From Escherichia coli O157:H7 (GTDB taxonomy: Bacteria; Pseudomonadota; Gammaproteobacteria; Enterobacterales; Enterobacteriaceae): a stretch of 64,000 nt of DNA. Every line of letters starts with the position of its first letter. The stretch's first letter is position 1. The notes under the pieces are model-generated. The model was not told where the DNA came from. It did not search any database and saw only the letters and a program-made list of their open reading frames with translations. This document shows, piece by piece, positions 53,503 to 57,585 of the stretch. The stretch lies in NCBI RefSeq assembly GCF_013167455.1, contig NZ_CP038328.1. One strand, written 5' to 3'. The position numbers and the translations under genes were made by a program.

Positions 53503-54333
53503 ATGGATATCTCGCTTCTCAGTACCACCAGTGACCCTGAACAGCTTCGCGCTCTGGCAATTGCCATGGTGCAAAAAGTCATGGCTGAGAATGCAGAACT
53601 TCAGAACCGTATCCGCATCCTGGAAGAGCAGATGAAGCTCGCACGCCAGCAGCGTTTCGGTAAAAAATGCGAATCGCTGGCCGGGATGCAGCGTTCCCTG
53701 TTCGAAGAGGATGTTGACGCGGATATCGCAGAAATCTCGGCGCATCTGGACAAACTGCTTCCTCAGACCGGGGACGAAGAAAAAACAACAACACGTCCTG
53801 TTCGTAAGCCCTTGCCTTCACCTCTTCCCCGTGCTGAAAAGGTTATCCCGCCAGCTGAGGAACGTTGTCCTGACTGTGATGCCCCCCTGCACTTCATTCG
53901 CGATGAAGTCAGCGAGAAGCTGGAATATATTCCGGCACAGGTCGTGGTCAACCGCTATATCCGCCCGCAGTACAGCTGTCCCTGCTGTGAGAAAGTGTTC
54001 AGCGGAAAAATGCCGGCACATATCCTTCCGAAAAGTGCTGTTGAGCCATCGGTCATCGCACAGGTTGTCATCAGCAAATATACCGACCATCTGCCCCTGT
54101 ATCGCCAGCAGCACATTTTCTCCCGAATGGGGGTGGAGCTCCCCGTCAGTACAATGGCGGATATGGTCGGTGTTGCTGGCGCTGCACTGGCCCCGCTGGC
54201 AAAATTGTTACGCCACGAGCTTCTGACACGGGATGTTATTCATGCAGATGAAACGTCCCTGAGGCTCCTTGATACCCGGAAAGGCGGTAAATCCTGCTCC
54301 GGCTGGCTGTGGGCTTACGTCAGCGGAGAAAGA
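53503..54333 (+). pseudogene. IS66-family transposase TnpC, N-terminal part, interrupted at 54334
   Basis: Contains zinc-finger-like CPDC...CPCC and HADET; reading frame runs into the inserted element. Confidence 0.75.
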
Positions 54334-54363
54334 GTAAGCGTCAACGGAGCACCGTATTGACGC

Positions 54364-55977
54364 TTATTTATTGGTGAGTACTACGTTCCATGGCAGGAGT
54401 TCATCAACTCGGTTGGAAGGCCATTCTGGCAGTACGCTCAGGATATGGCGCAGATACGCTTCCGGATCGATACCGTTCAGACGGCAGGTGCCGATCAGCC
54501 CGTACAACAGTGCTCCACGCTCGCCGCCGTGATCGCTGCCAAAGAACATAAAGTTTTTCTTTCCGAGACAGACTGCACGAAGCGCTCTTTCCGCAGCATT
54601 ATTATCCGCCTCCGCCAGACCGTCATCACTGTAATAACAGAGGGCATCCCACTGATTCAGTACATAGCTGCACGCTTCGCCCAGTCTGGATTTTTTCGAC
54701 AGCGTACCATTCTTCTCCACCATCCATTCATGCAGTGACGTCAGTAACACTTTGCTTCGCTGCTGCCTGACGGCAAGACGCTCTGACTCCGGTAATCCCC
54801 GTATTTCATCCTCGATGGCGTACAGTTCACTGATTCGCTTCAGGGCTTCTTCTGCCGTCGCACTTTTGCTGCTGATGTATACATCGTGGATTTTTCGCCG
54901 GGCATGGGCCCAGCACGCAACTTCTGTCAGTGCACCACCTTCACGTTCTGCACTGAACAGCCGATCGTAACCGCTGAACGCATCCGCCTGCAGGATACCC
55001 CGGAAGGGACGAAGGTGTTGTACCGGATGTTTTCCCTGCCTGTCTGGTGAGTAGGCGAACCAGACCGCCGGTGGCTCTGATGAGCCCGCATTCCGGTCAT
55101 CCCGGACATACGTCCAGATGCGTCCTGTTTTTGCCTTTTTTCTGCCCGGTGCCAGCACTTTTACTGGTGTGTCGTCAGTGTGAACCTTGCGGGTGTTCAT
55201 CACGTAACGGTACAGGGTATCATTCAGCAGAGTCATTAACTGACAACATGCGTCAACCCAGTTGGAGAGTAATGCCCGGCTCAGTTCGATGCCCTGGCGG
55301 GCAAAGATTTCACTCTGACGATACAGTGGCAGGTGTTCGCAGTATTTTCCCGTTAACACGCGGGCAAGTAATCCGGAGCCCGCGATGCCGCGCTCTATCG
55401 GGCGGGACGGCGCTGGCGCTTCAACTATACAGTCACATTTTGTACAGGCTTTTTTTACCCGAACAGTGCGGATCACTTTCAGGGCGCTACTCACCAGTTC
55501 CAGCTGCTCAGCACTGACTTCCCCCAGATAATCCAGCTCACTGCCACACTCCGGGCAACAACTTTCTTCAGGCTCCAGACGGTGTATTTCACGGGGAAGA
55601 TGTGCCGGTAACGGACGACGATGACGTGACTGTCGCAACTGGCGGGGAACCTGCGGGTCATCCTCACGCCCACTGTAACGATCGCTTTCCTGTTCGCGTT
55701 GTTTCAGTTGGGCCTCAGCCTGTTCAACCTCACGCTGCAGTTTTTCAGAACGGGTACCGAACAACATCCGGCGCAGTTTTTCTATCTGGGCCCTCAGATG
55801 TTCTATTTCCCGCTCCTCCTCTTCGATCTTTTCCTCGGCACGTGCCAGTGCAGAGCGCAGGAAGGCCTCCGTCTCTTCAACCAGACTCAGTTGCTGATCT
55901 TTCTGACGGAGGGCTTCAGCCTGCTCAGAGAGCAGCCTTTCCAGCTCAGTGATACGAATGAGGTATTTCCGACTCAT
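54364..55977 (-). CDS. IS66-family transposase TnpC
   Basis: 537 aa full-length; coiled-coil N-terminus, zinc-finger CPECG...CTKCDC, DDE region. Confidence 0.9.
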   Translation of the reverse strand: MSRKYLIRITELERLLSEQAEALRQKDQQLSLVEETEAFLRSALARAEEKIEEEEREIEHLRAQIEKLRRMLFGTRSEKLQREVEQAEAQLKQREQESDRYSGREDDPQVPRQLRQSRHRRPLPAHLPREIHRLEPEESCCPECGSELDYLGEVSAEQLELVSSALKVIRTVRVKKACTKCDCIVEAPAPSRPIERGIAGSGLLARVLTGKYCEHLPLYRQSEIFARQGIELSRALLSNWVDACCQLMTLLNDTLYRYVMNTRKVHTDDTPVKVLAPGRKKAKTGRIWTYVRDDRNAGSSEPPAVWFAYSPDRQGKHPVQHLRPFRGILQADAFSGYDRLFSAEREGGALTEVACWAHARRKIHDVYISSKSATAEEALKRISELYAIEDEIRGLPESERLAVRQQRSKVLLTSLHEWMVEKNGTLSKKSRLGEACSYVLNQWDALCYYSDDGLAEADNNAAERALRAVCLGKKNFMFFGSDHGGERGALLYGLIGTCRLNGIDPEAYLRHILSVLPEWPSNRVDELLPWNVVLTNK

Positions 55978-56007
55978 GACCGTTTTTATAATCCGGCCAT
56001 GACATTT

Positions 56008-56358
56008 TTACAACATTGTCAGTGCATTAAGGCGGGATGTTTTGGGCTGACGCCAGTCCAGTTTATCGAGGAGCATTGCCAGCTGCGAGCGGGTAATGGA
56101 TACCTTACCGTCACGCACCGCAGGCCAGATAAACTGGCCTTCCTCCAGACGTTTGGTGAACAGGCACAGACCATCAGCATCAGCCCACAGAATTTTAATC
56201 GTGTCACCCCGTCGGCCGCGAAAGATAAACAGGTGACCGGAGAAGGGGTTCTCATCCAGCACATGTTGTACCTGTTCTCCCAGACCGTTGAAGGATTTAC
56301 GCATATCAGTAACGCCGGCAACCAGCCAGATTCGAGTGCCTGATGGGAGCGAGATCAT
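56008..56358 (-). CDS. IS66-family TnpB
   Basis: 116 aa MISLPSGTRIWLVAGVTDMRKSFNGL... Confidence 0.9.
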   Translation of the reverse strand: MISLPSGTRIWLVAGVTDMRKSFNGLGEQVQHVLDENPFSGHLFIFRGRRGDTIKILWADADGLCLFTKRLEEGQFIWPAVRDGKVSITRSQLAMLLDKLDWRQPKTSRLNALTML

Positions 56359-56780
56359 CGTCCCCTCCCGGTCAGTTCACGGATCAACACCGTGAGCAGC
56401 TCTGGTGAAGGATTTTCCAGCGTCATGTTACCGTGGCGGAACTCAACTTTACAGGAACTGGCACTGACTGTGCTTTGTGAAGGAGTGGATAAAAGCGGAG
56501 TAAGAGCCGCCATAGGCTCTTTCTGCTCATCAGGCGTTATCTCAACAGGTAATAATTCAACGCCAGCGCCAGAAGAGGTTGTTACCGGAAGACGCCGCGA
56601 TATACGCCTTTCGTTCTGCCAGAGCCTGAGCCATTTGAACAGGAGGTTATCATTGATATCGTGTTCCCGGGCAATACGGGCAACAGAGGCTCCTGGTTGT
56701 GAAGCCAGTTTAACCATTTGAAGTTTAAACTCATTTGAAAATGATCTGCGGGGTTCTGAGGATAATATTTTCTGTTCCAT
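56355..56780 (-). CDS. IS66-family TnpA
   Basis: 141 aa, HTH; overlaps tnpB by 4 nt. Confidence 0.9.
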   Translation of the reverse strand: MEQKILSSEPRRSFSNEFKLQMVKLASQPGASVARIAREHDINDNLLFKWLRLWQNERRISRRLPVTTSSGAGVELLPVEITPDEQKEPMAALTPLLSTPSQSTVSASSCKVEFRHGNMTLENPSPELLTVLIRELTGRGR

Positions 56781-56866
56781 AACAGGTGTCCACTAGTTGA
56801 AAAGGTGGGCACCTACGTTACCAATACTGGCTTAATGGCTACATACGGCGGTCAGTTTACGCTTAC

Positions 56867-57585
56867 GAGAAAGAAGCGGTCCGCCGGTCGTCTGTTTTGA
56901 CTCGCAGACCGGACGGGCCCTCAGATATCCTGAGGCCTGGCTGCAGGGCTGGTGTGGCGGTACGCTGGTGAGTGACGGATACAGCGTGTACAAATCTCTG
57001 GCGGATAATGACCCCGGTATTACATCTGCCTGTTGCTGGAGCCACGCAAGGCGCGGTTTCGCAAATCTGTATAAGGCCAGCAGGGAGCCCCGTGCAGCCA
57101 TGGCGCTGAGAAAAATCGCGGGTCTTTATCGCATTGAGAAGTTCATCCGTGAACGTCCTGTGGAAAAAATACGGCAATGGCGACAACGGTATTCCCGGCC
57201 GATAGTGAATGACCTGTTTGCCTGGCCTGAAGAGCAGGAGCCGTGCTGTCCGCCCGACGGACCACTAAACAAAGCGATTAATTATATCCTGAACCGGCGC
57301 GATGAACTGAGCTGCTTCCTGAGTGACGGAGCCGTGCCCCTGGACAACAATATCTGCGAGCGTGCTATCCGCCCGGTGGTCATGGGGCGGAAAGCATGGT
57401 TATTCGCCGGTTCACTGATGGCCGGGAACCGCGCGGCACAGATAATGAGCCTTCTGGAAACGGCAAAACGTAATGGTCTGGAGCCGCATGCCTGGCTGAC
57501 AGACGTTCTGACGCGTCTACCGGAGTGGCCGGAAGACCGACTGGAAGAGTTGCTGCCCCTTGAGGGATTTACCTTCTCCGGGTGA
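56867..57585 (+). pseudogene. IS66-family transposase TnpC, C-terminal part of the interrupted outer element
   Basis: ...CWSHARRGFANLYKA...LDNNICERAIRPVVMGRKAWLFAGS... typical TnpC C-terminal region; ORF track 56968..57585. Confidence 0.7.

Follow-up and report, generated by a model that had tools for sequence, protein, structure and literature searches.

IS elements at the locus

The window analysed here, a 64,000-nucleotide stretch of Escherichia coli O157:H7 DNA (contig NZ_CP038328.1), carries tRNA-Ser(GGA) at its left, ibrAB-like genes, iha, terZABCDEF, terW and the ure cluster, together with several insertion sequences (IS) and IS remnants; next to terW, one IS66-family element lies within the tnpC gene of another (Table 1). 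Members of the IS66 family (IS66, IS679) are 2.4–2.9 kb long, with overlapping tnpA and tnpB genes followed by tnpC, which encodes the DDE domain, and they have imperfect inverted repeats (IRs) of ~20–30 bp, typically starting with GTAAGCG, and an 8-bp target duplication. The characterisation of IS66 and IS679 is said to go back to Machida in 1984, Han and colleagues in 2001 and Gourbeyre and colleagues in 2010 ('Route 66').

Table 1. IS elements and remnants in the 64-kb window, with their genes, termini and target-site duplications (TSD)
Feature	Position	Strand	Details
Remnant of a different IS66-family element	17108-17688	minus	IR, tnpA 17178-17603, first ~75 bp of tnpB
IS3-family (IS629/IS1203-like) 3' fragment	17689-17947	plus	Pfam rve_3/rve_2; adjoins IS66 remnant
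Small IS66-family tnpC C-terminus remnant, yet another member	39817-39930	minus	tblastn, 60% aa identity to IS682 TnpC residues 498-535
IS21-family (ISSso4-like) truncated left end	52565-52676	plus	Stops exactly at outer IS66 boundary
Outer IS66-family element, ISEc49-like lineage	52677-58096	plus	2,879 bp without insert; ends mapped by homology
Outer tnpA, 109 aa	52764-53093	plus	PGAP: IS66-family TnpA, WP_000042916.1; no Pfam match
Outer tnpB	53059-53421	plus	Pfam TnpB_IS66, E 4.3e-35; PGAP start 53080
Outer tnpC 5' part, codons 1-277	53503-54333	plus	Pfam LZ, zf-IS66, DDE_Tnp_IS66 profile positions 2-99
Left TSD copy, GAGAAAGA	54326-54333		Directly adjoins GTAAGCG at 54334
Inner IS66-family element IS682	54334-56866	minus	2,533 bp; ends fixed by three independent plasmid copies
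Inner terminal IR, tnpC-proximal (GTAAGCGTCAACGG…)	54334-54357		24 nt, 83% complementary
Inner tnpC, intact DDE transposase, 537 aa	54364-55977	minus	Corresponds to WP_000088522.1
Inner tnpB, 116 aa	56008-56358	minus	Pfam TnpB_IS66, E 7.8e-37
Inner tnpA, 141 aa	56355-56780	minus	Pfam HTH_Tnp_1, E 1.3e-14
Inner terminal IR, tnpA-proximal (…CAGTTTACGCTTAC)	56843-56866		Pairs with 54334-54357
Right TSD copy, GAGAAAGA	56867-56874		Directly adjoins CGCTTAC ending at 56866
Outer tnpC 3' part, codons 278-513	56875-57585	plus	Pfam DDE_Tnp_IS66 positions 103-282, IS66_C
Tandem duplication, 2 x 150 bp, 87-88% identical	57796-58095		Non-coding 3' tail of outer element

The inner element shows the features of the IS66 family, with three ORFs carrying the family domains, imperfect IRs and an 8-bp duplication; its TnpC matches LZ_Tnp_IS66, zf-IS66, DDE_Tnp_IS66 (E 9.6e-96) and DDE_Tnp_IS66_C, the tnpA and tnpB ORFs overlap by 4 bp, and GTAAGCG is present at both tips of the IR (GTAAGCG from 54334, CGCTTAC ending at 56866). 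Along its full 2,533 bp it matches copies from many EHEC genomes at 100% identity, and no difference was detectable from the EHEC copies of IS682, with which it shares the three-ORF layout, the GTAAGCG termini and the 8-bp TSD. The name IS682 comes from the RefSeq/PGAP label of the identical tnpC product (WP_000088522.1, 'IS66-like element IS682 family transposase') and not from an ISfinder reference; ISEc23 and ISEc47 are close relatives (95–99% identical over the terminal 150 bp), and the ISfinder threshold for isoforms is roughly at least 95% nucleotide identity. Since both IRs and all three ORFs are kept, this copy is probably still mobile, as is also suggested by IS682 copies of 99.5–100% identity that lie in unrelated places on plasmids and have new TSDs.

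The outer (host) element likewise has the tnpA-tnpB-tnpC arrangement of the family, with a TnpB_IS66 domain and two tnpC halves that jointly cover LZ, zf-IS66, DDE_Tnp_IS66 and IS66_C. The two halves are in frame, and removal of the insert and one octamer restores an ORF of 513 codons, for which WP_000355324.1 is an intact homologue; PGAP labels the 5' part a pseudogene 'missing C-terminus'. The TnpC proteins of the inner and outer elements are only 31% identical, and there is no megablast-level DNA similarity between the elements; on the TnpC identity, they are therefore two different elements.

The initial annotation had described the sequence near 17.1–17.7 kb as a third, partial copy of the inserted IS that truncates an IS3-family transposase. 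A partial copy does exist there and does adjoin a 3' fragment of an IS3-family transposase, but it does not belong to the same IS: its identity to IS682 is 87% ungapped and 84% gapped, with a longest identical run of 93 bp, and its closest full-length relatives (about 94%) are other IS66 members. IS1203-family records match the IS3-family fragment, labelled 'integrase core domain… missing N-terminus' by PGAP, up to its junction with the IS66 remnant. PGAP annotates the small remnant downstream of the ter genes (39817-39930) as a frameshifted, partial 'transposase domain-containing protein'. The IS21-family sequence has four ~23-bp terminal repeats, and its positions 52575-52676 are 93% identical to the region ~100 bp upstream of istA in ISSso4-like elements, 52565-52574 having been added by eye against a printed ISSso4-like sequence; istA and istB are absent from the 64-kb window, and this sequence is therefore a remnant only. 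A further IS66 tnpC remnant hinted at by a short repeat at 58100-58160 was searched for by tblastn, which found nothing there.

Insertion of IS682 into the host tnpC

Both copies of the octamer GAGAAAGA directly adjoin the tips of IS682. The octamer occurs four times in the whole window (both strands), and matching 8-mers beside a fixed pair of IS ends are expected by chance with a probability of 4^-8, about 1.5e-5. E. coli O103:H2 12009 provides the empty site, an uninterrupted host element with a single GAGAAAGA and an intact 513-aa tnpC, to which the rejoined flanks of the window are collinear at 99.1% identity across 4,960 bp. The initial annotation had itself named the circumstance that would overturn its reading, namely that the octamers belong to the IS ends and not to the target. 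The alternative, in which the octamers form the tips of the IS or a conserved sub-terminal motif and the layout would be uninformative about clean transposition, is an a priori possibility taken from that annotation for which no support was found; it is effectively refuted, as the empty site carries exactly one GAGAAAGA, the similarity of other IS682/ISEc23 copies begins exactly at 54334, and three independent IS682 copies (99.5–99.7% identical, on IncK2/Z, IncHI2A and IncHI1A plasmids) are surrounded by TGCTAAAT, CGATAAAA and AAAAATGG, all of 8 bp and all different. On these sequence comparisons, GAGAAAGA is a true target duplication, and 8-bp duplications are made by IS66 (PMC6778807).

Coordinates, ORFs and the empty site thus agree with the earlier description of an IS66-family element inside the tnpC of another, flanked by an intact 8-bp duplication. 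The host gene is, as had been noted, split exactly at the insertion, with the match to the DDE_Tnp_IS66 profile ending at position 99 on one side and resuming at position 103 on the other. By interrupting the catalytic domain of the host transposase, the insertion inactivates the host element, which is therefore no longer able to supply its own transposase. The nested insertion is a neutral scar and not a functional device.

A nest of this kind could also be a fault of assembly, or separate IS66 copies could have recombined into a chimera, given that IS-rich islands mis-assemble easily and that the host element lacks its own TSD and adjoins an IS21 remnant. We give this next to no credence: the junction recurs in 520 complete genomes from independent assemblies, the duplication is exactly 8 bp and the flanks join up in frame without a flaw, and 31% TnpC identity with no megablast-level similarity leaves no substrate for homologous recombination. 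Simple transposition of IS682 into the tnpC of an older, unrelated IS66-family element next to terW is, by our estimate, about 97% probable, and the view that no rearrangement followed is borne out by the single GAGAAAGA and the 99.1% collinear flanks in O103:H2 12009. On this reading, IS682 entered the host tnpC at codon 277/278, in the opposite orientation; as expected for the family, its TnpC would have cut GAGAAAGA with an 8-bp stagger, and repair of the gaps would have doubled the octamer.

The host element and its relatives

The closest named relative of the host element is an ISEc49-family element (E. coli EE72d), which is collinear with it over tnpA-tnpB-tnpC and shares its left-end sequence GTGTCGTTACGGGGAAGTCATC. 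Nucleotide identity between the two is only about 75%, at which the host element would count as a separate IS by usual ISfinder practice; the right end of ISEc49 in E. coli EE72d is obscured by an adjoining IS. The closest copies (95–96%), which have no IS name, are found on E. coli plasmids such as pRK1, and the ends of the host element were mapped against copies in other contexts, the one on E. coli W pRK1 and a chromosomal copy. These two copies have a single 150-bp unit, whereas the window has a tandem pair. Relative to the uninterrupted copy in O103:H2, the host tnpB is short by 13 codons.

Compared with IS66 and IS679 as characterised, the host element has termini reading GTAAT… or GTGTCG… instead of GTAAGCG, a tnpA with no match to Pfam HTH_Tnp_1, and a long non-coding tail of 360–510 bp after tnpC. 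The tail (510 nt) gave no Rfam match and a non-significant fold z-score of -1.4 when assessed as a structured RNA. The host element may be an IS of the IS66 family that has no name as yet, its termini being atypical and its long 3' tail holding a 150-bp unit able to expand.

The copy on pRK1 has an 8-bp TSD, GTTTTCTG, and 17-bp IRs, GTAATGTTCCGGGGAAC and GTAATATTCCGGCGAAC, matched at 15/17 positions. In the window, neither candidate right end (58096 or 58105) gave a TSD for the host element, the flanks being GCATCCTG and TGACGACA; its left end, the ISEc49-like GTGTCGTTACGGGGAAG, agrees with the right end at only ~10/17 positions in a by-eye count of the printed ends. This left IR is unlike that of the closest relatives of the element and, together with the missing TSD, indicates that the host element's own history was not a simple insertion. 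Because the pRK1 copy has a TSD and the window copy has none, and because the adjoining IS21 element is truncated, the window copy has probably lost one original flank.

Distribution of the nested insertion

The identical IS682 junction was present in 520 of 5,426 complete E. coli genomes, about a tenth, including strains labelled O157:H7, O145, O111, O26 and O103, while the empty tnpC site was found in strains labelled O103:H2 and O121. In the junction-bearing genomes, PGAP annotates tnpC as a pseudogene in two pieces, one on either side of an IS682-family transposase. The surrounding DNA is the tellurite resistance- and adherence-conferring island of EHEC (SpLE1/OI-43/OI-48/TAI), the window being 99.5–99.7% identical to the copy in O157:H7 TR01 but lacking the 1.3-kb IS3-family insertion of that strain. 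This pathogenicity island of EHEC has been known since 2001. Given its presence in 520/5,426 genomes within the SpLE1/OI-43/48 ter-iha-ure island, the junction is old, inherited and already annotated. The insertion took place a single time, in an ancestral island, and was subsequently inherited or spread horizontally along with the island, and the occupied versus empty tnpC site is a stable lineage marker. The nested arrangement itself is ordinary, textbook and already known, as it is NCBI-annotated in hundreds of EHEC genomes, and it matters little overall; a literature search found no paper on this particular nest. IS66, IS3 and IS110 transposases are found at recombination junctions of SpLE1-like ter elements (PMC8193136).

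Recombination between the IS66 remnant and IS682

The initial annotation had suggested that the IS copies could mediate inversion or deletion of the intervening DNA. The right-hand 582 bp of IS682 (56285-56866) and the older remnant at 17108-17688, about 39 kb upstream, are in direct orientation at 84–87% identity; only deletion is therefore expected, and not inversion, and a deletion was in fact seen. E. coli O157:H7 7.1_Anguil, one of the 5,426 genomes, has lost 18,998 bp of the ter region in a clean deletion that crossed over within the IS66 homology, as measured against the 2013C-4974-type ileX island, a variant that differs from the serine-tRNA island of the window. A search of the 7.1_Anguil genome gave four matching places, which hints that an intact serW/serX island is also present there. 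In the Anguil hybrid, informative sites switch cleanly from remnant type to IS682 type about 150–160 bp into the homology. No genome showed the reciprocal junction (IS682 left, remnant right and IS3 flank) at a coverage of at least 80%. This fits deletion and not inversion, although the test is weak where an island has other flanks.

Only one genome carries the Anguil junction and the reciprocal product was not found, as would also be the case had the junction arisen by independent insertion or truncation, though a deletion leaves no reciprocal product. We consider such an independent origin very unlikely. The Anguil hybrid is truncated at exactly the truncation point of the remnant, matches the remnant at all left informative sites and IS682 at all right sites but one, and keeps the GAGAAAGA/outer-tnpC 3' flank, and outside the deletion the genome is collinear with the 2013C-4974 island at 98.7–99.0%. 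To judge from this hybrid structure, homologous recombination between such an IS66 pair removed the ter region from one natural isolate or more, and the nested IS682 is on record, though rarely, as a substrate by which the tellurite-resistance region is lost. Deletions by homologous recombination between IS66 copies have been described, including a 270-kb case in Agrobacterium pAt15955 (PMC6778807) in which, as in Anguil, the IS66 copies were directly repeated, the cargo was lost and hybrid flanks or TSDs were diagnostic; the EHEC case differs in that the repeats are only 84–87% identical, one being a 582-bp remnant, and in its rarity (1/5,426). It is conceivable, though we think it improbable, that the IS66 remnant and the nested IS682 could recurrently yield ter-less, potentially tellurite-sensitive SpLE1-like variants in STEC; if so, recurrent ter loss would affect STEC detection on selective media with tellurite.

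Loss of the ter region is the only demonstrable consequence of the IS682 insertion.

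IS682 lies in the tnpC gene of a second IS66-family element

Sequence reading of 53000-58500 revealed a left junction of …CAGCG GAGAAAGA (54326-54333), with GTAAGCGTCAACGG… from 54334, and a right junction at which …CAGTTTACGCTTAC ends at 56866 and is followed by GAGAAAGA (56867-56874) and AGCGG…; the coordinates of both octamers were verified by script, and the window contains just four occurrences of GAGAAAGA on its two strands. The enclosed 2,533-bp segment (54334-56866), IS682, ends in a 24-nt inverted repeat (83% complementary, GTAAGCG at each tip) and its three intact ORFs carry the domain set of the IS66 family (see table). 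The plus-strand ORFs on either side are, as first read, a second IS66-type tnpC cut in two at the insertion point; the halves are in frame and give a 513-codon ORF when the insert and one octamer are taken out, so that the DDE domain of the host transposase is broken. The host and IS682 TnpC proteins share only 31% identity.

Features of the nested insertion and of related sequences in the window
Feature	Position	Strand	Description
tRNA-Ser(GGA)	2481-2568	plus	
IS66-family remnant	17108-17688		one IR, intact tnpA (17178-17603), ~75 bp of tnpB
IS629/IS1203-like IS3-family 3' fragment	17689-~17947		adjoins remnant; rve_3/rve_2 domains
Fourth IS66 trace	39817-39930	minus	38-codon tnpC C-terminus, 60% aa identity to IS682 TnpC
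Host tnpC, 5' half	53503-54333	plus	DDE profile positions 2-99
IS682 tnpC	54364-55977	minus	intact; Pfam LZ_Tnp_IS66, zf-IS66, DDE_Tnp_IS66 (E 9.6e-96), DDE_Tnp_IS66_C
IS682 tnpB	56008-56358	minus	intact ORF, Pfam TnpB_IS66
IS682 tnpA	56355-56780	minus	intact ORF, Pfam HTH_Tnp_1
Host tnpC, 3' half	56875-57585	plus	DDE profile positions 103-282 and C-terminal element

The octamers might have been part of the IS ends, in which case they would not be a target duplication. Flanks rejoined with a single GAGAAAGA matched single uninterrupted pieces in many genomes (98.7–98.8% identity, 100% coverage), including O103:H2 12009 and O121 RM8352; the empty site of O103:H2 12009, …GTCAGCG GAGAAAGA AGCGGTCC…, has the octamer once, in a tnpC that is intact (WP_000355324.1), and is collinear with the rejoined flanks at 99.1% identity over 4,960 bp. 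Other IS682, ISEc23 and ISEc47 copies aligned with a 300-bp left-junction probe only from probe position 150/151 (window 54333/54334), and three independent IS682 copies (99.5–99.7%) on IncK2/Z, IncHI2A and IncHI1A plasmids share the termini of the window copy, while their 8-bp direct repeats all differ (TGCTAAAT, CGATAAAA and AAAAATGG). The empty site, the limit of homology and the three different plasmid repeats together identify the octamer as target DNA, and the duplication is intact, as the initial annotation proposed. All four IS682 target duplications (the window and the three plasmids) are A/T-rich, a number too small to indicate a preference.

From what is known of the IS66 family (Machida 1984; Han et al. 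2001; Gourbeyre et al. 2010), TnpC would catalyse cuts staggered by 8 bp, the gaps would then be repaired, and transposition would need TnpA and TnpB; IS682 is probably mobile on these grounds, and the host element would no longer be autonomously mobile. A further basis for these expectations is found in PMC6778807.

Distribution and island setting

Strains labelled O157:H7, O145, O111, O26 and O103 carry copies that match IS682 at 100% from end to end, and PGAP there names the transposase ‘IS66-like element IS682 family’ and the flanking tnpC halves pseudogenes; 520 of 5,426 complete E. coli genomes match a junction probe over its entire length. The window is 99.5–99.7% identical to the ter-iha-ure island (SpLE1, OI-43/48 or TAI) of O157:H7 TR01, which differs in having an extra 1,308-bp IS3-family insertion at window ~26060-26065, so that the window stems from another strain or lineage; the tRNA-Ser(GGA) gene is likely the island integration site, of serW/serX type. 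SpLE1-like elements contain IS66, IS3 and IS110 transposases, some at recombination junctions (PMC8193136). Given this literature, the distribution and the PGAP annotation, the insertion is old, inherited and annotated; the nested arrangement is real and was read correctly apart from two minor corrections, and it is ordinary and already known.

Host element and its layering

Limits of the host IS were set by copies on E. coli W plasmid pRK1 and a Brazilian chromosome, giving window 52677-58096 (2,879 bp without the insert); the nearest named relative is ISEc49, at ~75% nucleotide identity. In the pRK1 copy, 17-bp IRs (GTAATGTTCCGGGGAAC / GTAATATTCCGGCGAAC) are accompanied by an 8-bp TSD (GTTTTCTG), and this IS type therefore also behaves as an IS66-family member. 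The window copy differs from the others in its ISEc49-like left tip (GTGTCGTTACGGGG…) and in a tandem duplication of 2 x 150 bp (57796-58095; units 87–88% identical) within its long non-coding 3' tail, where other copies have one unit; the tail gave no Rfam match and no significant fold. The host tnpB (53080-53421) is a 113-aa protein in IS682-occupied islands (WP_000957248.1), and that of the uninterrupted copy in O103:H2 12009 (L002 3542-3922; WP_000957247.1, 126 aa) is 13 codons longer.

No TSD of the host element was found in the window, its flanks being GCATCCTG and TGACGACA. Between terW and this element lies the left end of a truncated IS21-family (ISSso4-like) element: the four ~23-bp direct repeats at 52565-52676 (…GATCAnnGTTTGGCATC…) are its terminal repeats, and the sequence shares 93% identity with DNA upstream of istA on two plasmids. 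The IS21 homology ends exactly at 52676, the IS66 boundary, and the remaining body, including istA/istB, is missing, which plausibly explains the lack of a host TSD. Since the IS21 end abuts the host IS66, itself split by IS682, three layers can be ordered: IS21 remnant, host IS66, then IS682.

The 17-kb remnant and loss of the ter region

The remnant matches 56285-56866 in direct orientation, but with only 87% identity ungapped and 84% gapped (longest identical run, 93 bp), and its best full-length relatives elsewhere are IS66 members ~94% identical to it, not IS682; it is thus not a third copy of the same IS, as had been supposed, although it does border a truncated IS3-family transposase. 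With the tnpC trace downstream of the ter genes, the IS-rich character attributed to the region is agreed.

As the repeats are diverged and direct, only deletion would be expected of them, and of the two rearrangements envisaged, inversion is discounted. A chimeric query (remnant left flank and remnant joined to GAGAAAGA / outer-tnpC 3' flank) gave a single full-length match in exactly one of the 5,426 complete genomes, O157:H7 7.1_Anguil, where a tnpB'-tnpA hybrid runs straight into the 3' half of the host tnpC. In this SpLE1-related island (NZ_CP076232.1 5318000-5367000), located at tRNA-Ile beside mug, the ter genes are gone and the ure genes kept. The same ileX island in 2013C-4974 (NZ_CP027587.1 3326491-3368211), with many identical protein accessions left of the remnant, has no such deletion and runs from the remnant through IS3, vWA, the ter operon and terW to the host IS66 with its nested IS682; the two are collinear (98.7–99.0%) except for an 18,998-bp gap, by which the 7.1_Anguil island lost IS3, vWA, the ter operon, terW, half of the host IS66 and most of IS682. 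In the hybrid, every informative site on the left is remnant-like and all but one on the right are IS682-like, the odd site lying near the switch point, ~150–160 bp into the homology; this clean switch bears the signature of homologous recombination between direct repeats. A search for the reciprocal junction did not find it, the outcome expected of a deletion. IS66-mediated deletions reported in Agrobacterium are a parallel (PMC6778807). That this repeat pair mediated ter-region loss once among the complete genomes is the most useful by-product of the analysis.

Other observations

In the Brazilian chromosome (L004 4172-4215; NZ_CP182378.1), a host-type IS66 element adjoins an IS682-like element at the tnpC-proximal end region of the latter, with a flank (…GAGTACTACGTTCCATGGCAGGAGTTC…) resembling window 54377-54405, the reverse kind of IS66-beside-IS66 arrangement; this is a hint that one IS66 element often inserts into or next to another. 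Rfam matches on the minus strand comprised a strong one to STAXI RNA (58759-58910, 134 bits), ~650 bp right of the host element; the EHEC-specific sRNA Esr41 (35481-35554, 108.6 bits; gathering score 102); and IS102 RNA (15142-15377, 77 bits), by the end of a 1,005-aa ORF (12274-15291).
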